Virus record (IMG/VR): IMGVR_UViG_2862873970_000001 | Coordinates: 14,456 to 78,455 of that record | Reading direction: 5' to 3' (one strand) | Source of the DNA: a virus | Lineage: Duplodnaviria; Caudoviricetes | DNA: 64,000 nucleotides | Shown: piece after piece, positions 1 to 64,000 of the stretch | Layout of the letters: each line of letters starts with the position of its first letter | Numbering within the stretch: position 1 is the stretch's first letter | The notes under the pieces: model-generated | Told to the model about the DNA's origin: nothing | The model's input: the letters and a program-made list of their open reading frames with translations, nothing else | Database searches by the model: none | Program-made: the position numbers and the translations under genes

Positions 1-328
1 GACTTCATGGCGTTCTCCATCGCTGTCGCACAGGTGGGCATTGACTGGTTCTCCGTGCGCGACAAGCCCAAAGATCACGGCCTACAGAAGCTGATCGAGG
101 GCGCCGAGCTTGACGAGTTCGACAAAGGTCGTCCTCGTGGATGACGTGGTCTCTACTGGTGCTTCACTCATGCGCGCCTTCGATGCCGTATGGGATACCG
201 GCGCTGAGATCCTAGCCGTCATGCCTTTAGTGGACCGTGCCGGCGTGGCCGATACGTCTTTCCGCGAACGAGGGGTGCGCTATCACCCACTGTTCACCCA
301 CCATGAGTTGGGAATTGATCCGCTGTAA
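1..328 (+). pseudogene. pyrE: Orotate phosphoribosyltransferase-like (PyrE) gene, 5'-truncated by window edge, with an apparent single-base frameshift near 124-127
   Basis: Frame 1 reads ...WFSVRDKPKDHGLQKLIEGAELDEFDK (PyrE flexible loop); frame 2 continues VVLVDDVVSTGAS (PRPP-binding motif)...LVDR. The join needs removal of one A in GACAAAGGTC. Confidence 0.7.
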
Positions 329-534
329 TGGATCACAAAGAGATCGCCGAAGCCCTTCTAGGCGCCAGCGACGTGTGGGCTCATGGCGGTATCGCACCGG
401 ATGGCCGACCACAAGCCTGGCCTTCAGCCCTCACCCACGCCATCCTGGCCCTGTGTGACCGCCTGGACGCCTTGCCGGCCGTCATCGCCCTAACTGATGC
501 GGAAGAGTGCGAAGAGGGCCCAGAGGACCGATAA
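328..534 (+). CDS. Hypothetical protein (68 aa)
   Basis: Coupled to upstream stop (TAATG); its stop TAA lies in the dif-like site at 527-548. Confidence 0.65.
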   Translation: MDHKEIAEALLGASDVWAHGGIAPDGRPQAWPSALTHAILALCDRLDALPAVIALTDAEECEEGPEDR

Positions 535-548
535 GACGCCTTACGTCA
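527..548 (+). repeat. dif-like site A: ACCGATAA-gacgcc-TTACGTCA
   Basis: Two half-sites with 6-bp spacer, resembling the actinobacterial dif consensus CCGATAA-N6-TTATGTCAA as I recall it. Confidence 0.7.
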
Positions 549-707
549 GGCCTCAGGGAAGTGAACCGAGAGCTTTGCGCGCCCGTCCTGCGCGGCCTCA
601 ACGATGGCGTTCCATTCCGGCTCGGGGACGTCGTACCTGCTCCCGTCCGTGAAACGGACCTCGACATCCCCGTTTCCGCGCCCGATGGCGTAATCGAAAA
701 CCTTCAT
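546..707 (-). CDS. Cassette gene, hypothetical 53 aa (MKVFDYAIGRGNGDVEVRFTDGSRYDVPEPEW...)
   Basis: Not in ORF track; translated by hand. RBS GGGAG upstream; stop TGA within site A. Confidence 0.7.
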   Translation of the reverse strand: MKVFDYAIGRGNGDVEVRFTDGSRYDVPEPEWNAIVEAAQDGRAKLSVHFPEA

Positions 708-726
708 GTCATCTCCCTGTCGAAGT

Positions 727-752
727 GCCGATAATCAAGCGGTCTTATGTCG
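727..752 (+). repeat. dif-like site B: GCCGATAA-tcaagcggtc-TTATGTCG
   Basis: Read directly; 10-bp spacer. Confidence 0.7.
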
Positions 753-942
753 TCTGTTCGGGATGCCAGGCGGCGATGTTGGCGCGCACAGCGCGGTCAC
801 GCGCCGCCAGCGCATCGTTGTATCTCTGTCGAGCCTCATCGACTTCATGCTGCGCCGCTAGCAGGTCAATTAGGGCAGCATCGACTGCCGCATTGGCCTC
901 TAGGCGTTCACGCCAAGTGCGCTCTTTCAGTGTCTCGCTCAT
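745..942 (-). CDS. Cassette gene, hypothetical helical protein (65 aa)
   Basis: RBS AGAAGGG immediately after TTATCGGC; stop TAA is the TTA of site B. Confidence 0.75.
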   Translation of the reverse strand: MSETLKERTWRERLEANAAVDAALIDLLAAQHEVDEARQRYNDALAARDRAVRANIAAWHPEQTT

Positions 943-954
943 GTTGACCCTTCT

Positions 955-980
955 GCCGATAACTGCACGGTCTTATGTCG
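955..980 (+). repeat. dif-like site C: GCCGATAA-ctgcacggtc-TTATGTCG
   Basis: Read directly; matches site B apart from the 5 bases at 963-967. Confidence 0.7.
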
Positions 981-1236
981 GGCTCAGCGGCTTGACGTTG
1001 GGCAGCGCGTAGTACGGATATGCGTCGAACGTGTCGCAGTCGTCCAGCTCGTCATCGTCGGCGTCAAGGTACTCGCGGGACTCGTCAAACTCCCACTGGA
1101 AGATGCCGTCGTCGTTGAAATAGCCGTGGTCGGTGGCGTGCCCGGCAGAATGCTTTGTCCCGATGCGCCCGAACTTGTCCGCGAACGCGGTGCCACTGGG
1201 AATGTCCTCGAAACGGCGGTAGTCATAGTCAGCCAT
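973..1236 (-). CDS. Cassette gene, acidic hypothetical protein (87 aa)
   Basis: RBS AAGGAG; stop TAA is the TTA of site C. Confidence 0.8.
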   Translation of the reverse strand: MADYDYRRFEDIPSGTAFADKFGRIGTKHSAGHATDHGYFNDDGIFQWEFDESREYLDADDDELDDCDTFDAYPYYALPNVKPLSPT

Positions 1237-1260
1237 CTTGGTTCTCCTTGTGATTTGTTA

Positions 1261-1284
1261 GCCGATAACGTTGCGTTTATGAAA
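1261..1284 (+). repeat. dif-like site D: GCCGATAA-cgttgcgt-TTATGAAA
   Basis: Read directly; 8-bp spacer; abuts tRNA-Gln. Confidence 0.6.
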
Positions 1285-1358
1285 TCCGGTGTCGTCTAAC
1301 GGCAGGACGTCGGGCTCTGGACCCGAAGGTTGGGGTTCGAATCCTTGCACCGGAGCCA
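1285..1358 (+). tRNA. tRNA-Gln(CTG)
   Basis: Acceptor TCCGGTG/CACCGGA, anticodon arm TCGGG-CTCTGGA-CCCGA, TTCGAAT T-loop, encoded CCA; T-stem has three G-U pairs. Confidence 0.85.
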
Positions 1359-1429
1359 CCGCTGGCAGTCGGCACACGGACACCGCGCCGGCCAGTTGGG
1401 ACACCGCGGGGCTGCTACCTCCATGAGTT

Positions 1430-1618
1430 TCATTGACACATCCTTTGCACTGTCGGAATAGACATACCAATAGCTTCTGCAAGCTCTTCGTACGTGTGTC
1501 CCGATAACTTCGCTTCCTTGACCGCTTCATTGAGGCCAGCTCGGGTATACGAGGCTTTTTCAGCCTGTTGCTGCCAGATCTTCGCTAGGCGACGCACGCG
1601 GGCAAGATGATCCATCAC
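1430..1618 (-). CDS. Small helix-turn-helix DNA-binding protein
   Basis: GHTYEELAEAIGMSIPTVQRM HTH pattern; start overlaps stop of upstream gene. Confidence 0.75.
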   Translation of the reverse strand: MMDHLARVRRLAKIWQQQAEKASYTRAGLNEAVKEAKLSGHTYEELAEAIGMSIPTVQRMCQ

Positions 1619-1932
1619 TGCCCCACCAGCGTCAGCAGCGTCACGCGCTTCCACCCCATCGGCTCACACGCATACGCTGTTTCGCCGATCACCACGACAT
1701 CCCCAACCGAGAGGCTGCGGTTACCGTTCCTGCGGTATTCCTGCGCCCAGGTTGTCCCAGGATCGTCTTTGTTCAACTGACTGAATACGATCTTCAGCAG
1801 CATCTCGATATGCCCACACGCGGGCAATGAGGACTGGAAAACGATGGCCTCAGTCAGATCGTCACCAGCCGTGTACCCACGAAATGCTGCGGAGTTGTTC
1901 AGCAGAACTTTCACTGTCGCTTTGTCGCCCAT
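1615..1932 (-). CDS. YodL-like domain protein
   Basis: RSLSVGDVVVIGETAYACEPMGW resembles the YodL C-terminal motif. Confidence 0.6.
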   Translation of the reverse strand: MGDKATVKVLLNNSAAFRGYTAGDDLTEAIVFQSSLPACGHIEMLLKIVFSQLNKDDPGTTWAQEYRRNGNRSLSVGDVVVIGETAYACEPMGWKRVTLLTLVGQ

Positions 1933-2375
1933 CAGAGTCCAGCCTCCAGGATCTCCCCGGCCACCTTGGCAATCCTCTCGCCATGCTCGTCGGTGGCCTC
2001 GCAGTGCATCAGCACATAGGACAGGTAGTCCAGCTCTTGATTCATGTCGAACTCGACGCCGGCCATGCCCGCGGCGAAGATGGCGACTGAGTGAGCCTCG
2101 ACCTCATGCAGATCCTCGTTGGCCACCTTCTGCGCCAGCGCAGGTAATGCCGCCCACATCTCTTCGACCGTTTCGGGGAACTTCATGGTGTGCCCGAGCA
2201 GTATATGCGCCATCTCGTGCATGGCCACGAATTCGGGGTAACGCTCCTGCGGGTCTATCGCCACTTCTCGGCCGATGCTGTACCCGCGTGGCTCTCCTTC
2301 CATGGGTCGATAAGGGACTGGCGTGATGTCCAGCCTTTCCATGGCTTTACGGATATCCCATTTTGGTTGAGTCAT
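1932..2375 (-). CDS. Zincin-like metallopeptidase (ArdC-C/MPTase/ImmA-like)
   Basis: HEMAH (HExxH) plus downstream EVEAHSVA; RBS AAGGAGG. Confidence 0.75.
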   Translation of the reverse strand: MTQPKWDIRKAMERLDITPVPYRPMEGEPRGYSIGREVAIDPQERYPEFVAMHEMAHILLGHTMKFPETVEEMWAALPALAQKVANEDLHEVEAHSVAIFAAGMAGVEFDMNQELDYLSYVLMHCEATDEHGERIAKVAGEILEAGL

Positions 2376-2421
2376 GCTAGTCCTCCTTATACTGAGGGTT
2401 GGTAGTTTAGTGAATGACGTC

Positions 2422-2451
2422 AGCTTATCACGTGTGATAAGTGAGACACAA
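2422..2451 (-). promoter_or_regulatory. Predicted promoter TTGTGT-N18-TAAGCT overlapped by inverted repeat CTTATCAC-gt-GTGATAAG (2424-2441)
   Basis: Perfect 8-bp inverted repeat overlapping the -10 and spacer, upstream of the 2375 start. Confidence 0.5.
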
Positions 2452-2662
2452 GACTTATGCCCGACTGAAAAGTACCGACTCCAATGTTTTGCCGACTCGC
2501 CAATGCTATTCAGTTAATGCGCTGTAGCCAGAAATTTTACGGGCCAATTTTGCGCCGATAGATCCAACGATCCCCCACCCGCTGCCACTCCAGGACAGCG
2601 GCAGACAGTGCGCGGCAGCCCGCGAAATGCCACCCATCCGTACGCCTACAGTGCTGACACAT

Positions 2663-2893
2663 CTACGAAATTCCTGCCTTGGCCAATACCATCTGAATGG
2701 TGCCCACGCCGAGACCGGTGGCGTCACGCATCTCTCGAAACGATGCGCCGGCCTGCCTGGCGTCACACAGCAACTTGTTGACCTGGGCGCGCTCATCGTT
2801 GGCCGCGGCCACGGCCGAACGCCAGGTCTGGGTACGCCCACGCAACCGCGACAGAATCGCATCCACCTGGTCGAATTCGTCCGAAACGGTCAT
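2663..2893 (-). CDS. HTH DNA-binding protein (76 aa)
   Basis: GASFREMRDATGLGVGTIQMVL HTH; ATG coupled to upstream stop. Confidence 0.7.
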   Translation of the reverse strand: MTVSDEFDQVDAILSRLRGRTQTWRSAVAAANDERAQVNKLLCDARQAGASFREMRDATGLGVGTIQMVLAKAGIS

Positions 2894-3105
2894 CAGCCAC
2901 ACTCCTTGGTCACACGTCCACAGCGGACTGCTGTATGCACCCCGTGATCCGATTTGACCACATAGAAGCCGTTGCCGGTCTGCTCGACTCGCCCAAACGT
3001 GCGAACGCCATCGCGTTCCCGTACCCACGAGACGCGATCACCGCGGTAGATCCTATCCGGGCTCTCCATGCGTACAGTATACGTACGCTCGTTTGTTGTG
3101 TCCAT
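2893..3105 (-). CDS. Hypothetical protein, SH3-like (70 aa)
   Basis: GDRVSW...FGRVE beta-barrel pattern; in leftward operon. Confidence 0.6.
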   Translation of the reverse strand: MDTTNERTYTVRMESPDRIYRGDRVSWVRERDGVRTFGRVEQTGNGFYVVKSDHGVHTAVRCGRVTKECG

Positions 3106-3153
3106 ACCCTGATTTCCTAGTTGCTGTAGCGAAAATTTTTGTAGCGGAAATTT

Positions 3154-3267
3154 TTAGCCGGCCAGCTCCGACTCGGCCCTCTCCACCGCCTCCTGGTAGG
3201 TGAGGCCCAGATTGGACTGGTACATGCAGACCAGCGCGATAAAGCGTGTCGAGTCGTTCACGTCCAT
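3154..3267 (-). CDS. Hypothetical protein (37 aa, MDVNDSTRFIALVCMYQSNLG...)
   Basis: Hand-translated; RBS AAGGAG. Confidence 0.5.
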   Translation of the reverse strand: MDVNDSTRFIALVCMYQSNLGLTYQEAVERAESELAG

Positions 3268-3461
3268 AGCTCCTTAGCAATCTTCAATGCCTCACGCCGC
3301 ACTGTGGCAGGAATCGTGAGGCCCCGCGCGAGTATCCGCCACCCGCTAGGCCATAGGGACACGCTGAATTCCTCACGCCGGCCGGATTTATGCGTGGCGA
3401 CAAAATCCACACTGGGGATCGTTCCCCACTCCGCGCCGGTAACGTGCAGTGTCCAGCTCAT
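3258..3461 (-). CDS. Hypothetical protein (67 aa)
   Basis: RBS GGAGG. Confidence 0.65.
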   Translation of the reverse strand: MSWTLHVTGAEWGTIPSVDFVATHKSGRREEFSVSLWPSGWRILARGLTIPATVRREALKIAKELWT

Positions 3462-3523
3462 TTACTCACCTCCTAGTCTCAGTGGCATTAGACCGCTCAC
3501 CTGTTTAGATGAGCGATGTAATG

Positions 3524-3709
3524 TCACTCAGATGATTCAATTTTTCGTAGCTCGTAGGGCTCTACGGTGAACTGGTCTCGGCCAGATACATTCTCAACAA
3601 TGGGGAGCCCGGCATCTGGGTCAAATCCAACAAGTTCTACGGTTAGAACCTGTCCCACTTCGTAGCGCTCCGTGTCGCGCTCTGTTGCGATGAAGTGATA
3701 TAGCTTCAT
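3524..3709 (-). CDS. Hypothetical protein (61 aa)
   Basis: RBS AAGGA. Confidence 0.65.
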   Translation of the reverse strand: MKLYHFIATERDTERYEVGQVLTVELVGFDPDAGLPIVENVSGRDQFTVEPYELRKIESSE

Positions 3710-3780
3710 TTCACTGTCCTTACTACTTGTAGTGATGTAACTCCGTAAGGCTCACTAGACACGTAGTGAGCCAAGCGCAG

Positions 3781-4026
3781 TCACAAGCGCGCCACTGTGG
3801 CTATTACTTTCACGTCACCATTACGCCAGACTCTCGAATAGACGTCTCCCACGCGTTGCGGCTGATCTCCCACTAGGATCAATCCGAGACTCCGCGCATA
3901 CTCGCGCGCCAAGCCTTCTGATGCCCGTATACCAGAATTGAACGCATATTTGCTTGCCTCGCCGACTAGCTCGATTTCGTCGCCGCTGACCCGCTCAAGA
4001 GTGACATTTACAGTTGAACGTTTCAT
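3781..4026 (-). CDS. Hypothetical protein (81 aa)
   Basis: RBS AGGAGG; coupled to upstream gene. Confidence 0.65.
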   Translation of the reverse strand: MKRSTVNVTLERVSGDEIELVGEASKYAFNSGIRASEGLAREYARSLGLILVGDQPQRVGDVYSRVWRNGDVKVIATVARL

Positions 4027-4514
4027 CAGTTGTAACCTCCTACATAAGAACCGTTGTCATAGGCGTTAGGACCCGTTGCGAAGTCGGCGAACTTAGTCCG
4101 CTGCACTGCCCGGTCACTGTGGCGCTGATGTAAATGCTTACTCACGGGCAAATAGCTGCCAGGATCCTTATCCCAATCGCTTCCGTGAGGTTGACCGGAG
4201 CAATCGATCTGTCCGGTATACAGGTTGATTTCGCAGCTATCGGGATATGTGATACTTCCGTCGCCGTGACGATAGCCATCGCTAGGTTTCCATGGCTCGC
4301 ACGGCCATTCTGCGAATAGCACGCCGCCATCGTCATAGCAGCCGGCAGGAGCATGGTTGGCATTGTTCGGACCACAGACACGGTTACCGTCGTCAACGCA
4401 CGACCAGCACGGTTCATCTTCCATGCATTTAGCCGTGATGGTCCCGTGGTGGGTCGGAGCTAATCCGAGTGCTCCTACTGCCAGTGCGACACCAATTGCT
4501 TTAATCACTGTCAT
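4026..4514 (-). CDS. Putative secreted Cys-rich protein
   Basis: N-terminal hydrophobic signal; CMEDEPCWSCVDDGNRVCGP motif. Confidence 0.65.
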   Translation of the reverse strand: MTVIKAIGVALAVGALGLAPTHHGTITAKCMEDEPCWSCVDDGNRVCGPNNANHAPAGCYDDGGVLFAEWPCEPWKPSDGYRHGDGSITYPDSCEINLYTGQIDCSGQPHGSDWDKDPGSYLPVSKHLHQRHSDRAVQRTKFADFATGPNAYDNGSYVGGYN

Positions 4515-4620
4515 CTCCCGAATGTGTTTGCATCCATGCAGCGGAGTCCGAGACTTCTAACTCCGCTCCCACGTCGTCTATCAGGTAGTGATAGAACCTG
4601 CTAAGTAGCGCGGGCATGAC

Positions 4621-5025
4621 TCACCTGTACCAGTACGTCACGCCGTCATATTCGACGCTGGTGTAGTCCATTCGCAGCTCGCGCGCGGCACGTTCCCAAT
4701 CGATGCAATTGTGTGGCCACTGCTCCGCGCCGGTAATCGCCCCGATGTCCTCTGCCAACTCTTGCGCGTAGTCCTCGAAATACGAGTCGCGAATCAACGT
4801 GACCGGGTACCAGTCACCGCGCCATTGCTCATCGCCACCGTTGCCGCGCAATTCGTCTAGCAGCGCAGTAAGCTCGGCGTATTCCTCGTGATCATCTTCG
4901 TGACCCTCGTATTCCGCGCCGGCAGACCCGTCGACCACAGACCCGTTTGACGTCTCTTCCAAGTACTCGACGCGTTCGATGATGTCTCGGACATCGATGA
5001 TGTCTTCATAGTTGTCGATTCCCAT
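4621..5025 (-). CDS. ArdA-like antirestriction (DNA-mimic) protein
   Basis: Very acidic; C-terminal YAQELAED...IDWERAARELRMDY resembles ArdA domain 3; start reassigned to ATG 5025 after GAGAAGG. Confidence 0.6.
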   Translation of the reverse strand: MGIDNYEDIIDVRDIIERVEYLEETSNGSVVDGSAGAEYEGHEDDHEEYAELTALLDELRGNGGDEQWRGDWYPVTLIRDSYFEDYAQELAEDIGAITGAEQWPHNCIDWERAARELRMDYTSVEYDGVTYWYR

Positions 5026-5071
5026 TGCCTTCTCTCTTCCCTGAATTGTGTAGGTTGGTAGTCCTATCCCT

Positions 5072-5101
5072 AGTGTAAACCCGTACAGTACCCGTACGCA
5101 A
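5072..5101 (-). promoter_or_regulatory. Predicted promoter TTGCGT-N18-TACACT containing GTACGGGTACTGTAC motif
   Basis: Hexamers and shared motif read directly. Confidence 0.55.
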
Positions 5102-5109
5102 GGAGTAAT

Positions 5110-5307
5110 TTGATTCACAGCGAACCATCAGCAATCGATTGCCTAGAAAAGCGTCTGGAGCTACTAGAGCACCCGACAGGCCCGGTCAAGCTGGTACAGT
5201 TCCACCACAACAGTCCCCAATTGCAGAAGCTCCGCAGACACATCGCGGAGGCAATTGTGATTACGCTGGAATCTAACGGCTACGTGGTGAAGAAACGTGC
5301 GAAGTAA
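5110..5307 (+). CDS. Hypothetical protein (65 aa)
   Basis: AAGGAG RBS before TTG. Confidence 0.55.
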   Translation: MIHSEPSAIDCLEKRLELLEHPTGPVKLVQFHHNSPQLQKLRRHIAEAIVITLESNGYVVKKRAK

Positions 5308-5482
5308 AGACGTCCAGCTCCGCACTATCGAGGTAGCGAAGAAGCTATGCGAATACGCTGGTTGCTCTGTCTCGGCCGAACATTGCGCCGATGACACGGT
5401 TAACCTCATCATTACCGTGACAGGTACTGATGACCATGCCGGCGATCTACTACAGGCTGCGCTGGCGGCGCGGGATGCCTAG
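5297..5482 (+). CDS. Hypothetical protein (61 aa)
   Basis: Overlaps upstream gene; stop abuts convergent gene. Confidence 0.5.
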   Translation: MRSKDVQLRTIEVAKKLCEYAGCSVSAEHCADDTVNLIITVTGTDDHAGDLLQAALAARDA

Positions 5483-5770
5483 TTAAACCCGACTCTCCGC
5501 CATGCGTAGACGGTCGTCACGCTGGGTTATGCGGCGACCTACGACTAGATCGTCATATCCACGCGCGACCAGCTCGCCATGCAGTCCCGCGTATTCATAC
5601 TCGCGAGCTGGCACGGTGGTGTAGTACCAGTCTTTAGAGCATGCGCTATGCTGGCCCAAGTGCGCGTAGCAGGTCATTTCGCGGCCGTTGTATGTCGCGG
5701 CGATCTGCGGAAAGACTGCTACTACCTCGTTGGCCGCTTTGTCCTTGCGGAAGATAACTTTAGTGCTCAT
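5483..5770 (-). CDS. Hypothetical protein (95 aa)
   Basis: TCYAHLGQHS motif; GAGGAG RBS. Confidence 0.7.
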   Translation of the reverse strand: MSTKVIFRKDKAANEVVAVFPQIAATYNGREMTCYAHLGQHSACSKDWYYTTVPAREYEYAGLHGELVARGYDDLVVGRRITQRDDRLRMAESRV

Positions 5771-5883
5771 CGCGCCATACTCCTCACTGCGTTCTGCGCT
5801 GATTCCTTAGTAAAGTAGTGCTGACGTAACCGATGCCCATTCACCACTACGGCATAGACTTGTGGGCGGATCTCGATGACCAT
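5767..5883 (-). CDS. Hypothetical protein (38 aa)
   Basis: Hand-translated; coupled at both ends. Confidence 0.5.
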   Translation of the reverse strand: MVIEIRPQVYAVVVNGHRLRQHYFTKESAQNAVRSMAR

Positions 5884-6134
5884 CACATTCCCCTACCTAC
5901 GGTTACAGACTCGGTAACATCCTTTACCTCGGACCATTCCCGCTCGACAACGGAATCTGTTACTAGAGTCGCGTTACCGATTTCCCACTCAAACTCTTCC
6001 GCTAGCTGTTCGTCATCTGACGAGTCGTAGTCGCGCCCGGGGTGGACAGCGCGAAGTAGCGCTAGCACCTCTTCGCGGGAGAACTCCGAGTGTAAGACTG
6101 TGGTCAACTCGCGGCGGACTGTGAATGTCGACAT
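5883..6134 (-). CDS. Hypothetical acidic protein (83 aa)
   Basis: ORF in leftward operon with AGGGG RBS. Confidence 0.65.
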   Translation of the reverse strand: MSTFTVRRELTTVLHSEFSREEVLALLRAVHPGRDYDSSDDEQLAEEFEWEIGNATLVTDSVVEREWSEVKDVTESVTVGRGM

Positions 6135-6176
6135 GACTTACCCCTATCGCGTAATGGTTGTCTCGCTCATGCCTCT

Positions 6177-6205
6177 ATCGTACGCCTACTGTACGGCAAT
6201 GTGAA
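6177..6205 (-). promoter_or_regulatory. Predicted promoter TTCACA-N17-TACGAT containing CGTACAGTAGG
   Basis: Hexamers and shared motif. Confidence 0.55.
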
Positions 6206-6217
6206 TACCTCACGCAT

Positions 6218-6249
6218 AAAAAAGAGAGCCGGATTGCTCCGACTCTCTT
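6218..6249 (-). terminator. Intrinsic terminator
   Basis: AAGAGAG-CCGGA/TCCGA-CTCTCTT hairpin followed by U-tract on minus strand. Confidence 0.7.
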
Positions 6250-6266
6250 GGTTCCTACCTCCCTCC

Positions 6267-6500
6267 TTATCGCCCCAACTCCCGGTCTAGCCGCTCGGCT
6301 ACGGCGTTTAACCCGCACTCGTAGCAGGTGACGTAATCGTTCTCGCTGCTGTCATACCATTGGCGGTCAGTACTCGCGTCCTCTGCGCTGTCCGCGTCAT
6401 AGTTGGCGTAGTCAATATAAGGCTGCACGAAATGCTCCTCGCATAACGTCGCCTCTGACATCGCCGTGCCTTGATCCGTGATCCGTGAGTACTGTTTCAC
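6267..6500 (-). CDS. Hypothetical acidic protein with Cys pairs (77 aa)
   Basis: CEEH...CYECG; AGGA RBS. Confidence 0.65.
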   Translation of the reverse strand: MKQYSRITDQGTAMSEATLCEEHFVQPYIDYANYDADSAEDASTDRQWYDSSENDYVTCYECGLNAVAERLDRELGR

Positions 6501-6515
6501 GATTTGTCCTATCTC

Positions 6516-6674
6516 CTATCGGCTAATGGGTTCGTTGTCCAGCTGGTTTAGGTAGTCCCCTACCGCTAATGCCAGTCCGATACCAGCGTTAGCCGTGTCT
6601 AATCCGTGCGCGTCGCGGGCTTCGACGTGGTTAAACTCGCGTAATGCTTCCCGTAGCCGCCCTAATGCGTCCAT
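6516..6674 (-). CDS. Hypothetical protein (52 aa, MDALGRLREALREFNHVEARD...)
   Basis: Hand-translated; AGGAGG RBS. Confidence 0.6.
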   Translation of the reverse strand: MDALGRLREALREFNHVEARDAHGLDTANAGIGLALAVGDYLNQLDNEPISR

Positions 6675-6703
6675 GGTGCCCTCCTAGCTGGGTTGGTAAT
6701 TTC

Positions 6704-6733
6704 AGTGTACCCCTACAGTACGCACTCACACAA
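6704..6733 (-). promoter_or_regulatory. Predicted promoter TTGTGT-N18-TACACT containing GCGTACTGTAGG
   Basis: Hexamers and shared motif. Confidence 0.55.
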
Positions 6734-6876
6734 TAGGAATGTCCCCATATGCTTCCCAATGTCAACAATAGTTCCAGCACACGAGCGAAGGTATTCAAGA
6801 ACGCATCCAACACCTGGACCGGCATTCACCGATACCTAGGCGCCCGAGGGTTCGACACTTGGCGTGAGGCGATGAA

Positions 6877-7245
6877 ATGGGCCACTATCAAATTAACGCT
6901 GGTCAATTGAAGCGTCCCCCTAGACCCTGCACAGTGTGCGGACAGCCCGTATACCGACAGGCCCGTTGTCGCACCCATTACAAGCAAGCGGAGAAGCGTC
7001 GTGGGAATAGCTCCGAACGCGGATATGGGTCTCGACACGAGAGAATGTTCCGCCGTCCCGTCCTAATGCGGGATCCAATATGCGTAATGCAGGACTGCGA
7101 TGAACCATCCGTACACGCAGACCACTACCCCTACACCCGTAGGCAGCTAGTGCGTATGGGCCTAGACCCTGATGACCCACAGTACGGGCGTGGACTCTGC
7201 ACCCATCACCACAACCAGTGGACAGCTAGCCAGCCCCGTACCTAG
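6877..7245 (+). CDS. HNH endonuclease (terminase-associated, HK97 gp74-like)
   Basis: PCTVCG...C..H, RGYG, RDPIC...SVHADH...GLCTHHHN; precedes noncoding cos-like region. Confidence 0.8.
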   Translation: MGHYQINAGQLKRPPRPCTVCGQPVYRQARCRTHYKQAEKRRGNSSERGYGSRHERMFRRPVLMRDPICVMQDCDEPSVHADHYPYTRRQLVRMGLDPDDPQYGRGLCTHHHNQWTASQPRT

Positions 7246-7367
7246 AGGGTTGCATGGTGTATCTATCTGCATTACATTCCCACCACTATGAGCGGTAGAG
7301 AGCCGTCGACCACCCGCGTTGTCGTGCTGGTATGAGCTAAAGAGAGCCGCTGTCCCCCTTGACGTTT

Positions 7368-7540
7368 GGAGGGGAGGGGGTGGGTCGAAATCCCTGCAGT
7401 GTCATAAGCGGGGCGACCGTTCCGGTTCGATCCGTGTCGAAGCACGTAATCCGTTCTTGTGCAAGGGTTTTCGGAAAATAATCCAAACCCAGCTTCCCAA
7501 AAACCTCACCCCGAAACACTAAGCAGTGCAAGGGTTTTCG
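7368..7540. other. Probable cos/genome-end region
   Basis: Noncoding after HNH; G-run GGAGGGGAGGGGGTGGGTCGAAATCCCTG; 15-bp direct repeat GTGCAAGGGTTTTCG at 7459-7473 and 7526-7540. Confidence 0.5.
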
Positions 7541-7722
7541 ATTAACGCCAACCAAGGACTCCTCGACTGAAATGCGTAGACTGCGGCGTTGACCTGGAGC
7601 CGCATCAAGGGCGTGGCCGGCCGCGTAAGCGCTGCCCATCATGCTCCCCACCAGGTCGTTACTACGTTCCCACGACAAATCGCGACCAGGCAATTTGCAC
7701 CTTCTGCTCCCGGTCGTTTGAG

Positions 7723-8253
7723 GTGACGTCGCGTCGTGGTCCGATTGCTTTATATTGCTCACGCGCATGTCGCATGGCCAACCTTTACCGAAATCGCACC
7801 CCTAACAGGGAGTGTTCCCATTGCGGGGTCGTGATACCGGTTGGATCCGCTCAAAGGAGATTCTGCTCCAAGGATTGCCACAACGCTTCGATGCGAAAGG
7901 GCTATCCGGTCACGAACTGCGAGACCTGCGGCATAAAGATCATCTCGGGAAGTTCGCAGCCCATCCGTTTCTGCGATGCCCACAGGCCGCCCGACTCGGC
8001 ATATTCCCAAAGACGCCGCGACTTGATTAAGGGCGGCGAGCGCATCGATCCTGTCGAGGTGTTCGAATCCGACGACTGGACGTGTGGCGTCTGCGCCGGC
8101 CCGGTCGATCCGGAGCTTAAGTTCCCCGACCCCATGGCCGCGAGCCTCGATCACATCATCCCCCTATCCCGGGGTGGCGAACATGTCAGGTCAAATGTCC
8201 AGTGCGCTCACTGGATCTGCAACTGCCGGAAGTCCGCAAAGGTTGCAGCCTGA
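7723..8253 (+). CDS. HNH endonuclease with N-terminal Cys/zinc-finger repeats
   Basis: CGVC...SLDHIIPLSRGGEHVRSNVQCAHWICN; reading frame is open upstream to 7546. Confidence 0.85.
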   Translation: MTSRRGPIALYCSRACRMANLYRNRTPNRECSHCGVVIPVGSAQRRFCSKDCHNASMRKGYPVTNCETCGIKIISGSSQPIRFCDAHRPPDSAYSQRRRDLIKGGERIDPVEVFESDDWTCGVCAGPVDPELKFPDPMAASLDHIIPLSRGGEHVRSNVQCAHWICNCRKSAKVAA

Positions 8254-8257
8254 TCAG

Positions 8258-8407
8258 TCACGACACAGCGTCCCGCGGTAGCTGCTCTTCCTTGTAGCCG
8301 CAATGGCCACAAGTCACCATAATGAGGTCTGCAGCGCTGTCGTAACTGGCCTTATGGGATCTGCTCTCACACTTGGGACAGAGCCACCAGCTCGAATACA
8401 TCTCCAT
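8258..8407 (-). CDS. Zinc-ribbon protein (49 aa)
   Basis: Hand-translated MEMYSSWWLCPKC...TCGHCGY. Confidence 0.55.
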   Translation of the reverse strand: MEMYSSWWLCPKCESRSHKASYDSAADLIMVTCGHCGYKEEQLPRDAVS

Positions 8408-8413
8408 CGCTTT

Positions 8414-8433
8414 GGTAAATCCGCCTTATGTCG
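8414..8433 (+). repeat. Degenerate dif-like site E: GGTAA-atccgcc-TTATGTCG
   Basis: Right half identical to sites B and C and carries the stop of the 8426 gene. Confidence 0.5.
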
Positions 8434-8683
8434 CCTTAGATTGCTTGATTTCGAGTGCTTGACGTAGCCGCCAGGCGTTCGCCAAGTGCCGCGCCGACAG
8501 ACCATCCTGGTAGGCGATCTGGCGCTCTAGCTGATCCTGTGGCCACTCGGCCATACCCTCGATAACCTTGCGCTCAAAGGCGCACTGCTCGTCATCGCAG
8601 TCATAGGCGGGACCGGGCACTGACACCTGACACGATGTGCCGTCGATGTCGATAACGTGGCTGTGGAAGTCAATCTTGCTCAT
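8426..8683 (-). CDS. Cassette gene, hypothetical (85 aa)
   Basis: TTATCGGC-AGAGAGG-acacc-ATG upstream; stop in TTATGTCG. Confidence 0.75.
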   Translation of the reverse strand: MSKIDFHSHVIDIDGTSCQVSVPGPAYDCDDEQCAFERKVIEGMAEWPQDQLERQIAYQDGLSARHLANAWRLRQALEIKQSKAT

Positions 8684-8695
8684 GGTGTCCTCTCT

Positions 8696-8715
8696 GCCGA
8701 TAACGTTGCGAAATC
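8696..8715 (+). repeat. dif-like half-site F: GCCGATAACGTTGCG-AAATC
   Basis: 15-bp identity with site D. Confidence 0.6.
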
Positions 8716-8719
8716 GACA

Positions 8720-8944
8720 TCACGCCAGCACCGCTGTCCTGACCTGATGAACCCCACCACAGCTCCACCCATCCCGCTCATACCGCCATCCCCGCTGCCG
8801 CACGACCGCGTCCGCGTCTTCCTCACAGACTGCGTCGACCACCTGCACATGTGTACATGGCTGCGCCACCTCCCCGCGATGGCCGCGTCGACTCACGGTC
8901 TTGTCGCAGGTGTAGAGGTATCTGTTGATGACTTGTCTGGGCAT
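8720..8944 (-). CDS. Hypothetical Cys-containing protein (74 aa)
   Basis: Start reassigned to ATG 8944 after AAGGAAAAG. Confidence 0.6.
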   Translation of the reverse strand: MPRQVINRYLYTCDKTVSRRGHRGEVAQPCTHVQVVDAVCEEDADAVVRQRGWRYERDGWSCGGVHQVRTAVLA

Positions 8945-8953
8945 TCTTTTCCT

Positions 8954-9026
8954 TGGCGTGTAGCTCAATGGGCAGAGCAGCGGATTGTTAATCCGCCGGT
9001 TGGAGGTTCGAATCCTCCCGCGCCAG
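8954..9026 (+). tRNA. tRNA-Asn(GTT)
   Basis: Acceptor TGGCGTG/CGCGCCA, D arm GCTC/GAGC, anticodon arm GCGGA-TTGTTAA-TCCGC, T arm GGAGG-TTCGAAT-CCTCC; no encoded CCA. Confidence 0.92.
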
Positions 9027-9236
9027 CCTGTAGCCGTCGAGATAGGGCTCCAGTGGCATTGAGAACTTGAGATGGACGACGCCGAGGTAATTGCCGACTT
9101 CGTCATAGACCTCGCAGAAGCTGTACATGCCGTCGAGGTGGTCGAATTCCACCCACCCGTCCGGATAGTCCCCAGGGCATAGCCCATGGATCTTCGGCCG
9201 CGGATTCTGCCGCTGCGGTAGGTCGCTTAACTGCAT
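8988..9236 (-). CDS. Hypothetical protein (82 aa); 3' end overlaps tRNA-Asn antisense
   Basis: ATG 9236 after GAAGGA. Confidence 0.6.
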   Translation of the reverse strand: MQLSDLPQRQNPRPKIHGLCPGDYPDGWVEFDHLDGMYSFCEVYDEVGNYLGVVHLKFSMPLEPYLDGYRLAREDSNLQPAD

Positions 9237-10566: not shown

Positions 10567-10610
10567 TTACGCTCCTAAGTTTTAGTCGGGCTCAATTCCC
10601 GTTAATCGTT

Positions 10611-10639
10611 ATCCTACTGTACCTGTACGGAGGTGTCTA
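10611..10639 (-). promoter_or_regulatory. Predicted promoter TAGACA-N17-TAGGAT containing CGTACAGGTACAGTAGG
   Basis: Hexamers and motif; overlaps terS RBS on opposite strand. Confidence 0.6.
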
Positions 10640-11120: not shown

Positions 11121-11293
11121 TGGCCACCTACCGCTTAGAGGCGTGGCTCAGCCACCCCGAGGGGGACATGGAAGACGAGTTGCAGGATCGCGTCGCGATG
11201 GCCATTCGTGGTGCCCAGGTCGGCATCAAAGAGGGTCCGGTGATCTTCCGCATCTACCCCTACGACCCGTCTGACACCGCCGCGTCGCTCTAG
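11120..11293 (+). CDS. Hypothetical protein (57 aa)
   Basis: Hand-translated; GTG coupled to terS stop. Confidence 0.5.
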   Translation: MATYRLEAWLSHPEGDMEDELQDRVAMAIRGAQVGIKEGPVIFRIYPYDPSDTAASL

Positions 11294-11306
11294 CGCCGAG
11301 TACACC

Positions 11307-11501
11307 CTACGTAAGGCTGCGAGCGCGATCCACAGCAGCGAAGTGGTTGTTTGCCTTGACAGTCTCGCGCCATTCGGCAGATGGATTGTGAAACAGTCCA
11401 AACTGAACATGCTCCTCGCACAGGCCGCATCGCGTGCAGCGCCGCAGGCTGTACCCATCCCATTCCCACGAATGGAACCACGATCCTTTGTTGTGGGCCA
11501 C
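11307..11501 (-). CDS. Cassette gene, hypothetical (64 aa, MAHNKGSWFHSWEW...RRCTRCG...RSLT)
   Basis: TTATCGGC-ATAGGAG-acaca-GTG upstream; stop in CTACGTAAGG half-site. Confidence 0.65.
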   Translation of the reverse strand: MAHNKGSWFHSWEWDGYSLRRCTRCGLCEEHVQFGLFHNPSAEWRETVKANNHFAAVDRARSLT

Positions 11502-11513
11502 TGTGTCTCCTAT

Positions 11514-11535
11514 GCCGATAACGGGCGCTATGAAA
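11514..11535 (+). repeat. dif-like site G: GCCGATAA-cgggcg-CTATGAAA
   Basis: 6-bp spacer; right half resembles site D. Confidence 0.6.
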
Positions 11536-11595
11536 GCTTCCCTACCCGCACAGTACCCGAACTGTGAACATCCATCAACACCCCGAAAGGTGAAT

Positions 11596-46620: not shown

Positions 46621-46663
46621 GAAAAAGCCCGATACCTCAATTCCTGGGGTGTCGGGCTTTTTC
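46621..46663. terminator. Bidirectional intrinsic terminator
   Basis: GAAAAAGCCCGATACC...GGTGTCGGGCTTTTTC between convergent operons. Confidence 0.8.
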
Positions 46664-46897
46664 GGTTTTCAGGGAGTTGGACGCGTCCCCACGGGGGTTG
46701 ACGGGGATGTGCAGCGCCCCCGCGGGAACGTGATGCCTACCGTACCGGTACGAGATTACGTTGGCAAGCGCCGATAGGGCGCCTTGCGTAAGCCCGACTT
46801 CAGCCAAGGGGCTTCGTGCAAGTTTCCGGCGCAACAGTAGTGTATGGGGCAGCGTGAGCCAGTAGCAAAGCCAGTAATACCAGGGCCATTCGTCCAT
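46637..46897 (-). CDS. Hypothetical protein (MDEWPWYYWLC...), possibly read through an ancestral stop at 46784-46786
   Basis: ORF crosses a dif-like site and stops inside the terminator. Confidence 0.45.
   Translation of the reverse strand: MDEWPWYYWLCYWLTLPHTLLLRRKLARSPLAEVGLTQGALSALANVISYRYGRHHVPAGALHIPVNPRGDASNSLKTEKARHPRN
46770..46791 (+). repeat. dif-like site: GCCGATAG-ggcgcc-TTGCGTAA
   Basis: One mismatch per arm; 6-bp spacer ending cgcc like site A. Confidence 0.5.
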
Positions 46898-47082: not shown

Positions 47083-47217
47083 TGGCACCTTCCTTTCGCC
47101 GATACGACCGCCAGAATGGGCGAGAGCCGGGACCGCTGTCGACAATTTGGGGCGCGATCCCGGCTCTCCTACCAACCCTCACAATGGAAGGTGAGGTCAG
47201 CATAGCACCCCTATATA

Positions 47218-62665: not shown

Positions 62666-62677
62666 CTTTCCGCGAGG

Positions 62678-62685
62678 TTATCGGT
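62678..62685 (-). repeat. dif-like half-site (TTATCGGT on + strand)
   Basis: Directly upstream of RBS AAAGGG and ATG 62705. Confidence 0.5.
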
Positions 62686-62704: not shown

Positions 62705-62905
62705 ATGGATCAGATGGGTGCGGTAGACCCAATGGACCGCTACAGATTCGTAACCGATGATGGTGATGAAGTGGTGATCGAGCGAGCTTATGGGGGTTTC
62801 GTAGTAGGCGTCACTCCCGGATGGAGTAGCCTCTCAGCTCGGCGGCCGGTGGCATTTGAACTGACCAAGGCCGAGGCCGCAGATTTAGCGGCACACCTTA
62901 CGTAA
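62705..62905 (+). CDS. Cassette gene, hypothetical (66 aa)
   Basis: Ends CTT ACG TAA within dif-like site. Confidence 0.7.
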   Translation: MDQMGAVDPMDRYRFVTDDGDEVVIERAYGGFVVGVTPGWSSLSARRPVAFELTKAEAADLAAHLT

Positions 62906-62919
62906 GGCGATTTATAGGT
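62896..62919 (-). repeat. dif-like site: ACCTATAA-atcgcc-TTACGTAAGG (minus strand)
   Basis: 6-bp spacer; arms contain the stops of the cassette gene and of the integrase. Confidence 0.6.
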
Positions 62920-64000
62920 CGTCTAGAGCCGCGAGGATCCGTTCCTCGACGTCAGCCGCGGAATGCCCATAGATCGACAGGGTTGTTGTCACGTCACTGT
63001 GACCAAGGCGCTCCTGGATTGCATGCGGGGGCAAGCCCTTGTCGAAGAGCCAGCTTGCATGGCTGTGGCGAAGGTCGTGAATGGTCGGGCGCCGATGCTT
63101 CGGCAGTCCGCTCTTGGCCATTGCCGGCACCCAGACGTCTGACCGGAAGCTGTCCGCGTGGATGCGATTGCCCCGCTTATTGACGAACACATACTCGCCC
63201 GACAGATCGAGTTGGTCGAGAACTCGCTGCGGCACGGCAACTTCCCGGTCAGATCTCACAGTCTTCGTGGTGCCCAGTTGCCCCTTGCTGAAGCTCTTGC
63301 AGAAGTGAACCTTTCCGGTCTTCAGATTCACGTCGGCCGGCGTCAGGGCGAGCGCTTCACCGAGTCGACATCCGGTCTCCGCGATGAACTCCACCAGCGT
63401 CCGATGGCATTCGGGCACTGACTTCAACACCAGCGGGTACTCGTCGCGCCGATCCAGGAATACCGGTGGCTTCCTGCCGGCCAGTGTGCGTGGGATTCGA
63501 ATCCCTTCAGAGAGCGTGCGCGTCGCCTTCTGTGCGGGGTTGGTGCGGATCTCGCCACGCCGGAAGGCAACCTCCAGTGACGAGAACAACAGGGCCCACG
63601 CTAGGTGGGTCGTGGAGGAACTGCACGTCCTCTCATTCACCCAGCTCTGGATCAGTTCTGGTGTCAATCGATTGATGCGGACGTCACCCAGCGTTGGGTT
63701 GATGTGAGTCTTGGCGCGACCGCGGTAGGTCTTCCTCGTGTTCTTGTTCGGCTTCTGCTCGATGTACCTCTCGATGCACTCGCGGACGGTGGGGCCACTG
63801 GCCACGCGCTTCGGCTCCATCGATTGGCCGATCATCCTCAGTGCTTCGACCGCCCCATAGTCCCCCACCATGCGGACGAATAGTTCGGCCTGGGCCTTGT
63901 CGGGGAAGGTGGTGGCGCCGGCACTCCCATCCGGAAACCGGTAGCGGGCCTTGTGCCCCTCGGGGAACCGCTTACTGGGGTGGGGATGAACTGATGCCAT
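62912..64000 (-). CDS. int: Tyrosine integrase
   Basis: TGCRLGE, TKT, HDLRHSHAS, LGHS, Y catalytic residues; ATG is at the window edge. Confidence 0.95.
   Translation of the reverse strand: MASVHPHPSKRFPEGHKARYRFPDGSAGATTFPDKAQAELFVRMVGDYGAVEALRMIGQSMEPKRVASGPTVRECIERYIEQKPNKNTRKTYRGRAKTHINPTLGDVRINRLTPELIQSWVNERTCSSSTTHLAWALLFSSLEVAFRRGEIRTNPAQKATRTLSEGIRIPRTLAGRKPPVFLDRRDEYPLVLKSVPECHRTLVEFIAETGCRLGEALALTPADVNLKTGKVHFCKSFSKGQLGTTKTVRSDREVAVPQRVLDQLDLSGEYVFVNKRGNRIHADSFRSDVWVPAMAKSGLPKHRRPTIHDLRHSHASWLFDKGLPPHAIQERLGHSDVTTTLSIYGHSAADVEERILAALDDL

Follow-up and report, generated by a model that had tools for sequence, protein, structure and literature searches.

It is near the left end of a 64,000-nt stretch of mycobacterial prophage DNA (IMG/VR record IMGVR_UViG_2862873970_000001, positions 14,456 to 78,455; this whole stretch is the window referred to below) where three small leftward genes lie head to tail between four directly repeated sites, named A to D, that resemble the chromosomal Xer recombination site dif. 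A first-pass annotation made from the letters alone had described them as an integron-like array of gene cassettes. We found that the sites are indeed there, and that the same kind of boundary, consisting of one element before the start codon and a second one at the stop codon, surrounds six small genes of this prophage instead of the three originally noticed.

The prophage and its array of sites

The window corresponds to G000:C58:39341-103340 in the genome of its Mycobacterium host (5.47 Mb in 146 contigs, 67.7% GC) and is contained in an island of low GC (57-61%). A 23-bp direct repeat stands at both island ends (G000:C58:24728-24750 and 103415-103437, the right copy 75 nt past the window end), and because this repeat bounds it, the island is a prophage of 78.7 kb. 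Its large terminase is 68.8% identical to the TerL of Cluster E phages such as Pumpkin and Porky, most other genes of the shared backbone being 30-67% identical, and about 45 of its 139 predicted genes have Pumpkin homologues (26-69% identity) in a largely kept order; on these similarities the prophage is Cluster-E-like. The array is placed where the rightward early genes meet, convergently, a block of leftward small genes, nearly all of which have no homologue in Pumpkin.

All four sites read on the + strand as direct repeats, with exactly the letters that had been given for them:

527-548, + strand: site A as first annotated, ACCGATAA-GACGCC-TTACGTCA
727-752, + strand: site B, GCCGATAA-N10-TTATGTCG
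955-980, + strand: site C, the same arms as B (GCCGATAA and TTATGTCG) around a different N10
1261-1284, + strand: site D, GCCGATAA-N8-TTATGAAA

The three minus-strand open reading frames (ORFs) that they delimit (546-707, 745-942 and 973-1236; c1, c2 and c3 below) are also as described: they are coding by the codon-usage model, mutually unrelated in all-against-all BLASTP, have their stop codons inside the right half-sites, and leave gaps of only 37, 30 and 21 nt between the units. Sites B and C are 81% identical across 27 nt, whereas site A falls in a sub-family with a 6-bp spacer and a right half of the CCTTACGTAAGG type, and the right half of site D, which abuts the tRNA-Gln gene at 1285-1358, is poor. 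The recurrence far exceeds chance, given that the pattern CCGATAA-N4-14-TTAYG, which was set after the sites had been seen, matches four times in the window against 0.06 expected from dinucleotide-preserving shuffles, none of 100 shuffles reaching four; over the whole 5.47 Mb genome it matches five times, these being sites A to D and the chromosomal dif.

A two-part frame around six small genes

In parallel, 8-mers enriched at gene boundaries were sought over the prophage without reference to dif, and GTTATCGG and TTATCGGC came out among the top ones. Five of the six copies of GTTATCGG lie 12-24 nt before a start codon in gene sense, one of these five being on the opposite DNA strand; the count is 5/6 and not 6/6 because the copy at 1501-1508 lies inside a helix-turn-helix gene (1430-1654) that our gene predictions had missed. 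Seen in this way, the sites split into two separable half-elements, namely a start element at the 5' side of a gene and an end element at its 3' side. The start element, (G)TTATCGG(C/T), precedes the start codon by 12, 12, 12, 19, 19 and 24 nt in six small genes and is followed by the ribosome-binding site. The end element, ACR-TAR-G (ACR-TAR-GRCS in its longer form), gives the final Thr codon plus the stop codon in five of these six genes, reading CGACATAAGRCSG in c2, c3 and gF and CCTTACGTAAGG-like in gG, gI and c1; the exception is c1, with a TGA two bases earlier within the same end element. The framed genes and their sites are as follows:

524..551, + strand: composite site A, AGGACCGATAA-GACGCC-TTACGTCAGGC (11-6-11); its right half provides the c1 stop; the left half, TTATCGGT in minus sense, is start-like but an orphan, as no gene follows it, and gives the TAA of the convergent ORF 328-534
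546..707, - strand: framed gene c1, 53 amino acids (aa); start element 19 nt before ATG; GCC TGA end inside CCTGACGTAAGG
724..755, + strand: junction B, AGTGCCGATAA-TCAAGCGGTC-TTATGTCGTCT, 10-bp gap; c2 end element plus c1 start element
745..942, - strand: framed gene c2, 65 aa; start element 12 nt before ATG; end ACG ACA TAA G
952..983, + strand: junction C, TCTGCCGATAA-CTGCACGGTC-TTATGTCGGGC, 10-bp gap; c3 end element plus c2 start element
973..1236, - strand: framed gene c3, 87 aa, acidic; start element 24 nt before ATG; end CCG ACA TAA G
1258..1287, + strand: junction D, TTAGCCGATAA-CGTTGCGT-TTATGAAATCC, 8-bp gap; c3 start element; its outer half, TTTCATAA in minus sense, is not the end of any gene and extends into the first bases of tRNA-Gln
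8408..8436, + strand: site E, gF end element (GCG ACA TAA G) plus a degenerate outer half, TTTGGTAA, 7-bp gap
8426..8683, - strand: framed gene gF, 85 aa; start element 12 nt before ATG; end GCG ACA TAA G
8693..8720, + strand: site F, gF start element; its 15-mer GCCGATAACGTTGCG is identical to that of D, F being D minus TTTATG
11292..11318, + strand: gG end element, CTT ACG TAG G within CCCTACGTAAGG, then an orphan start-like half, TACTCGGC (6/8), between convergent genes
11307..11501, - strand: framed gene gG, 64 aa, phrog_7164, antisense between terS and terL; start element 12 nt before GTG
11511..11538, + strand: site G, TATGCCGATAA-CGGGCG-CTATGAAAGCT, 6-bp gap; gG start element; its outer half, TTTCATAG, resembles that of D
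46767..46794, + strand: composite site, AGCGCCGATAG-GGCGCC-TTGCGTAAGCC (11-6-11); the start-like half CTATCGGC follows
62677..62685, + strand: gI start element, GTTATCGGT in gene sense, 19 nt before ATG
62705..62905, + strand: framed gene gI, 66 aa, adjoining the integrase gene; end CTT ACG TAA G
62895..62922, - strand: composite site, ACGACCTATAA-ATCGCC-TTACGTAAGGT (11-6-11), with the perfect palindrome CCTTACGTAAGG and the gI stop; its orphan half, TTATAGGT, is the stop of the convergent integrase gene

The start element thus marks 6 of the 139 predicted genes, with single-gene frames at 8426-8683, 11307-11501 and 62705-62905 besides the array, and gI lies on the opposite DNA strand from the other five. 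The two elements go together: ACR-TAR-G ends are found in 5 of the 6 genes with a start element and in 0 of the 133 others (Fisher p=1.5e-8). The full frame is also restricted to this prophage: of the 171 TTATCGG copies that the 5.47 Mb genome holds, none but those at these five prophage genes belongs to one. The elements are rare in the host, TTATCGGCA having 4 copies in the 82 kb island vs 7 in the remaining 5.39 Mb and CGACATAAG 3 vs 4.

At module junctions and ends the two halves are 2-5 nt apart (5 nt at B and C, which is what had been read as a 10-bp spacer), and the pair read on the other strand resembles the dif core, i.e., an inner XerC arm, a gap and an inner XerD arm. Where an end element has no gene behind it, a start-like half with at least 6 of 8 bases follows nonetheless in 4 of 5 cases, these being the orphan halves listed at A, 46767-46794, 62895-62922 and 11292-11318; with a background match chance of 6.3% per site, the binomial P is 7.5e-5. 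The first three have the same spacing and the 11-6-11 geometry of dif, and those at A and 62895-62922 serve at the same time as the stops of the two convergent reading frames. In the single-gene sites it is the half facing the gene that is well kept, the outer one being poorer, and upstream of the start elements of c3 and gG there is an outer half, TTTCATAR.

A separate observation concerns the site at 46767..46794, where a small minus-strand ORF (46637-46896) reads through the end element: CTT ACG CAA GG stands in place of the CTT ACG TAA GG of other modules, as if the stop had been lost by mutation and the ORF thereby lengthened as far as the hairpin of the canonical terminator (46622-46663).

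Likeness to the host dif

The comparison with dif that the first-pass annotation had proposed was carried out, and the inner arm bases are equal, in the right order and orientation. The host dif is AACGCCGATAA-GCGACA-TTATGTCAAGT at G000:C80:78809-78836. Its arm pattern, CCGATAA-N6-TTATGTCAAGT, occurs in 19 of the 41 genomes searched (this host included; 18 of 40 relatives), single in 18 and double in one, the reversed control pattern gives no matches, and in three complete genomes dif lies near mid-chromosome. In this dif, the 8 inner bases of the XerC arm are all identical to the 8-mer GCCGATAA (8/8), and 7 inner bases of the XerD arm are identical to TTATGTC (7/7). Because the 8-mer enrichment had ignored dif, the chance of identity with one of the four possible arm readings can be put at about 6e-5 by our own estimate. 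The host also encodes, by family score, the enzymes that would be needed: an XerD (TIGR02225, 341 bits, over the cut-off, at C118) and an XerC-like paralogue (266 bits, at C55).

Two side observations were made around the chromosomal site. A 372-aa tyrosine recombinase ORF (Pfam Phage_integrase; L003:3086-4204) begins about 250 bp to the right of dif in a stretch of slightly lower GC (60-65%, ~79-86.5 kb), which may be an integrated element, and at G000:C11:3957 (minus strand) there is an exact copy of the 11-base XerD arm with no recognisable XerC arm, a half-site that may have been left by a dif-targeting element.

Homologues of the framed genes

The clearest comparative result comes from gG, whose homologues in 51 Cluster E phages (80.6% protein identity) stand at another locus and have no frame; in every case they come immediately behind the polynucleotide kinase gene, are read on the forward strand and overlap their neighbours. 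The backbone of the prophage is much less similar to these phages than gG is, with 68.8% for TerL and 30-67% for most other genes. At the nucleotide level, gG aligns with Porky from its start codon up to a point 3 codons short of the stop; Porky shares neither the 5' element and ribosome-binding region of gG nor its Ser-Leu-Thr-stop tail, so that homology ends at the inner edges of the frame. This alignment shows that the gG gene body was relocated between loci. In the case of c3, the homologue in prophiT49-3 is 53% identical and its homology ends about 10 codons before the stop, and there are metagenomic homologues (P0002-P0004), one of which is 74% identical at the protein level and shares the tail, ending in ...SLT.

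Beyond these, the comparative evidence is thin. Neither c1 nor c2 has a match in Pfam, PHROG or phage tblastn, and gF and gI have no tblastn match in phages. Megablast and blastn of the region against phages gave nothing useful, the sole match being 177 nt of c3 to prophiT49-3, and a plasmid search with the region gave nothing. DNA of window positions 300-1450 against 61 genomes, and of positions 1-9000 against 401 genus genomes, gave short weak matches only; in the same 401 genomes the c3 protein found its own genome only and the gG protein one weak match. Viral contigs searched with c3, the zincin gene and alignment A1, metagenome contigs searched with alignment A1 and P0002, and viral and genome contigs searched with the exact B/C pattern all yielded nothing, and none of these searches brought up a genome in which the same elements surround other genes. 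Conservation of the motif in Cluster E was considered and rejected, as the leftward block of Pumpkin has no such motif.

What the frames may be

Our tentative preference, which we hold to be plausible though short of probable, is that the frames are recombination-defined cassette boundaries derived from a Xer-type (dif-like) tyrosine-recombinase site. Each module would be a small accessory gene in a conserved frame, the sites would be the junctions between single-gene modules, and small genes would have been placed through these frames at four places in a Cluster-E-like mycobacterial prophage by a recombinase that acts or acted on them, presumably XerCD. The cassette reading of the first-pass annotation is partly supported, because the frames recur, start and end elements co-occur, and both are like the host dif; what stands is the cassette-like boundary with dif-like inner arms, and what does not is a set of regular dif sites, given that the array spacers of 6-10 bp are not identical and the outer arm bases differ. 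Since the gaps are unequal (6-10 bp) and the centres not identical, the present array is probably a relic or a non-canonical substrate, and not an actively shuffling XerCD array.

It must be kept in mind that several facts weigh against this explanation. The arms match only in their inner part (8/11 on the XerC side, 7-8/11 on the XerD side), the outer 3-4 bases being different and not conserved. The central regions do not keep to the 6 bp of an Xer site, with spacers of 6 (A), 10 (B), 10 (C) and 8 (D) bp in the array and gaps elsewhere that read as 6 (G, 46767 and 62895), 7 (E), 4 (11292) and 12 bp (upstream of gI), a range of 4-12 bp; central regions of up to 8 bp are found in Xer sites of plasmids. 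Moreover, no two centres are identical, B and C having only CGGTC in common, and the 5 nt beside the XerD-like half, CGSYC, are themselves conserved, unlike a free central region, which speaks against Xer chemistry. The portions of 10.1101/758037 on mycobacterial dif describe 28 bp with a 6-bp centre and state that sites with heterologous centres (differing at the borders) recombine poorly or not with each other. The position of the start element exactly 12 nt before the start codon in three genes, and the similarity between c2 and gF, which extends into the first codons, suit an expression signal as well as a recombination site. On the comparative side, the c3 homologue of prophiT49-3 is embedded in overlapping genes with no frame, the pattern GCCGATAA-N10-TTATGTCG gave 89 single matches over 185,579 species genomes, scattered among phyla and read as chance level, and the searches of phages, plasmids, genus genomes and viral or metagenome contigs found no relative with different gene content at the sites. 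Finally, the whole analysis is based on one genome and on our own gene predictions, which came from a purpose-written codon-usage script, the same one that missed the gene at 1430-1654.

A bolder extension of the preferred explanation, which we regard as unlikely, is a Xer/dif-derived cassette system of a mycobacteriophage lineage, in which each module would move as a mini-circle, its one dif-like site being formed where the 3' element is joined to the 5' element, and would be inserted at primary (11-6-11) and secondary sites of phage genomes by host XerCD or another tyrosine recombinase. Any captured ORF would then be expressed, because the frame supplies both the ribosome-binding region and the stop codon.

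The strongest competitor, which we consider rather unlikely, takes both elements for expression signals, i.e., a start-associated sequence and a preferred stop context read by some phage or host factor that co-regulates small accessory genes, with a coincidental likeness to dif. Such a role would agree with the facts that the start element follows the direction of the gene instead of a fixed DNA strand, that a purine-rich ribosome-binding site always comes after it, and that at site G it is probably in the 5' leader, because it lies downstream of a promoter-like TACTGT motif; a precedent exists in Cluster K, where the sections of PMC3203893 on extended start-associated sequences (ESAS) describe inverted repeats with a variable spacer just upstream of gene starts, which their authors take for protein-binding sites. 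A signal for expression should nevertheless have a gene to serve, and start-like halves stand behind four of five terminal end elements with no gene following, while the TTTCATAR outer halves of D and G end no gene. Neither was a matching signal found at the RNA or promoter level: folded as RNA only, the junctions have no structure beyond that of shuffles (z-scores -1.2 to +1.4), Rfam recognises two tRNAs and no known RNA family at the junctions, the start element has no complementarity of 6 nt or more to 16S rRNA, and a scan of 300-2800 found no terminator and, on the gene strand, no sigma-70-type promoter at the junctions. The prophage does have a canonical terminator (46622-46663) and a promoter-like motif, and both are quite unlike the frames. 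Coincidence would also have to cover two elements that were defined independently and yet correspond to the two inner dif arms, rightly ordered, when the 8-mer alone has the small chance estimated above.

More doubtful still is a re-use of the frame with no dedicated enzyme, in which the frame was duplicated within the phage and gene bodies were swapped by illegitimate or short-homology recombination, for instance through phage recombination genes, leaving the repeats as functionless scars or linkers. The sequences do carry marks of duplication, since site F and the c2 start region at C have 31 nt in common (84%), first codons included, D and F share their 15-mer and differ by a 6-bp deletion, and B and C are the similar pair already described; the spacing is irregular, and genes homologous to those for the exonuclease and the UvsX-like recombinase of Cluster E are present in the prophage. 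This would leave unexplained, however, why both halves match dif and why three terminal sites keep the 11-6-11 geometry, and elements of 8-13 nt seem short for homologous exchange.

Least likely among the readings that invoke recombination, and quite improbable in our judgement, is the one that the first-pass annotation had put forward, namely that host XerCD now inserts, excises and shuffles the cassettes as in an integron, with strand exchange in the spacers. The direct repetition of A to D, the dif-like inner arms, the host XerD and XerC-like genes and the three 11-6-11 sites are all as such a system would have them; but the gaps are 10 bp at B and C and 8 bp at D, the centres are never identical although the relevant part of 10.1101/758037 makes identity a need of strand exchange, the outer arm bases are not conserved, and the homology between gG and Porky is broken at the start codon and again 3 codons ahead of the stop, both points being inside the frame and not in the spacers. 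Insertion, excision and shuffling by host XerCD are consequently not supported with spacers of this kind and only the inner 7-8 of 11 arm bases kept; Xer catalysis as such is unproven and, in canonical form, unlikely for most junctions. The phage integrase, which had been named as the other possible recombinase, does not fit either: its gene (62912-64000) encodes a tyrosine recombinase, and its 23-bp att core is not dif-like and is unrelated to the sites, for which reason the idea that they are the integrase's own site was rejected.

Chance similarity, to which ATAA and TTAT would lend themselves by containing stop codons at AT-rich gene junctions (two orphan halves do give stops to convergent genes, and Pumpkin has ACG-TAA-GG at ordinary junctions), is very improbable in view of the shuffle controls, the genome-wide uniqueness of the frame and the Fisher and binomial values.

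Relation to known systems

In architecture, the nearest systems are the pdif modules of Acinetobacter and integron cassettes, and within the mycobacteriophages the start-associated sequences (SAS) and ESAS of Cluster K. Neighbouring pdif sites are in alternating orientation, whereas A to D all have one orientation. As characterised in the portions of PMC6449649, PMC7399989 and PMC12907356 dealing with them, pdif modules of Acinetobacter plasmids consist of one or a few accessory genes bounded by short dif-like sites, several per replicon, for XerC/XerD, and the likeness to our case lies precisely in accessory genes between several short sites resembling the chromosomal dif. The differences are that here the carrier is an actinobacterial prophage, all sites are direct relative to the genes, the gaps are 4-12 bp instead of a fixed 6, only the inner arms match, and a stop codon and a ribosome-binding region are built into the frame. 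Also, pdif modules recur between their sites in different replicons, while the gG body recurs in 51 Cluster E phages with no sites.

With integrons (attC, attI, IntI) the frames have in common the promoterless single-gene units placed head to tail, the boundary split between 3' and 5' ends, and the unrelated gene bodies. They differ in that no integron integrase is present, the TIGR02225 search having found a single prophage tyrosine recombinase, the integrase at 62912-64000, which is 62 kb from the array; the boundaries do not fold into a hairpin as attC does, and units are also scattered singly. Integrative mobile elements exploiting Xer, such as CTXphi, VGJphi, TLCphi and the gonococcal genetic island, have a dif-like site of which one arm is good and the other poor, rely on host XerCD and integrate at the chromosomal dif, whereas here the sites are inside a phage genome that integrates elsewhere with its own integrase. 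Morons are promoter-gene-terminator units in phage genomes; like them, the framed genes are single accessory genes between, or against the flow of, backbone genes (gG between terS and terL), but in the scan of 300-2800 the frames have no promoter-like or terminator-like signals. Stoperators of Cluster A mycobacteriophages are asymmetric repressor sites of ~13 bp in short intergenic gaps, oriented with transcription, and a genome has at least 20 of them; the present sites number 6-11 and are paired with gene ends.

Stoperators are also mentioned in PMC3203893, the passages of which on Cluster K describe SAS and ESAS as start-associated and gene-oriented repeats of the non-structural half, with SAS including the Shine-Dalgarno sequence at 3-7 nt from the start, ESAS being imperfect inverted repeats with a variable 4-13 bp spacer, and their function unknown. 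The frames share with them, on that description, asymmetric repeats upstream of starts, oriented with the gene, in a non-structural region and rare in the host. In contrast, the ESAS of TM4 read GTGTTGACA...TCAACA, while the start element has another sequence, lies 12-24 nt ahead of the start codon and does not include the ribosome-binding site, and SAS have neither a matching end element on the same genes nor a likeness to dif; identity with Cluster K ESAS was rejected because the sequence is different. We therefore file the feature in none of these families, as it departs from an Xer site in spacer length and identity, from an integron in the integrase and the folded attC, and from SAS in sequence and distance to the start.

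Other features of the prophage

A repeat of the form ~CCGTAC(A/T)GTA(C/G)CCGTACG with a TACNGT -10-like core lies at 2637, 3068, 5079, 6177, 6704, 9778, 10605-10633 and 11544. The motif, also written GTAC(A/T)GTAGG with the TACNGT -10, is found 45-55 nt before several leftward genes, a leader with TACCAACC often following, and is probably a phage early promoter family. Another boundary-enriched repeat, GAGAGCC(G), occurs at 6224, 7298, 7342, 47122-47175 and 62460, and at 47122-47175 two of its copies make a long inverted repeat (GAGAGCCGGGA ... TCCCGGCTCTC).

Three tRNA genes are carried by the prophage, Gln-CTG (1285-1358), Asn-GTT (8954-9028) and Gln-TTG (L001:12814-12885), of which Gln-CTG is on the + strand within the leftward gene block and directly abuts site D. 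An origin of the sites from a tRNA leader was rejected, since the sequences upstream of the three tRNAs differ.

The integrase gene is flanked by homologues of the polynucleotide kinase and RNA ligase genes of Cluster E, and because the Pumpkin integrase is instead in mid-genome, the integration module has moved. The polynucleotide kinase-RNA ligase interval is variable in Cluster E, with a gG homologue in 51 records (Porky, NC_011055 53316-53513, and 50 others), other small genes in Pumpkin, and the integrase plus gI in this prophage. At the opposite end, a phosphoribosyltransferase-like gene apparently lies in two overlapping plus-strand ORFs (window -239..144 and 110-328), the window beginning inside the first, and the second having the phosphoribosyltransferase motif (Pfam E=4e-5); the split may come from a frameshift or from programmed shifting.

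Possible meaning for mycobacteriophage mosaicism

In the literature on mycobacteriophages together with dif, XerC and prophages, or with dif-like sites, no account of such sites was found, judged by titles and the openings of abstracts. The mosaicism of actinobacteriophages is usually ascribed to rare illegitimate recombination, and a common frame that mimics the host dif would be a first hint of site-specific exchange of single genes in these phages, akin to that of pdif modules and integron cassettes. If a Xer/dif-derived cassette system were true, actinophage mosaicism would gain a site-specific component; if the elements were expression signals instead, they would represent a second kind of start-associated repeat in mycobacteriophages, one that marks co-regulated accessory genes.

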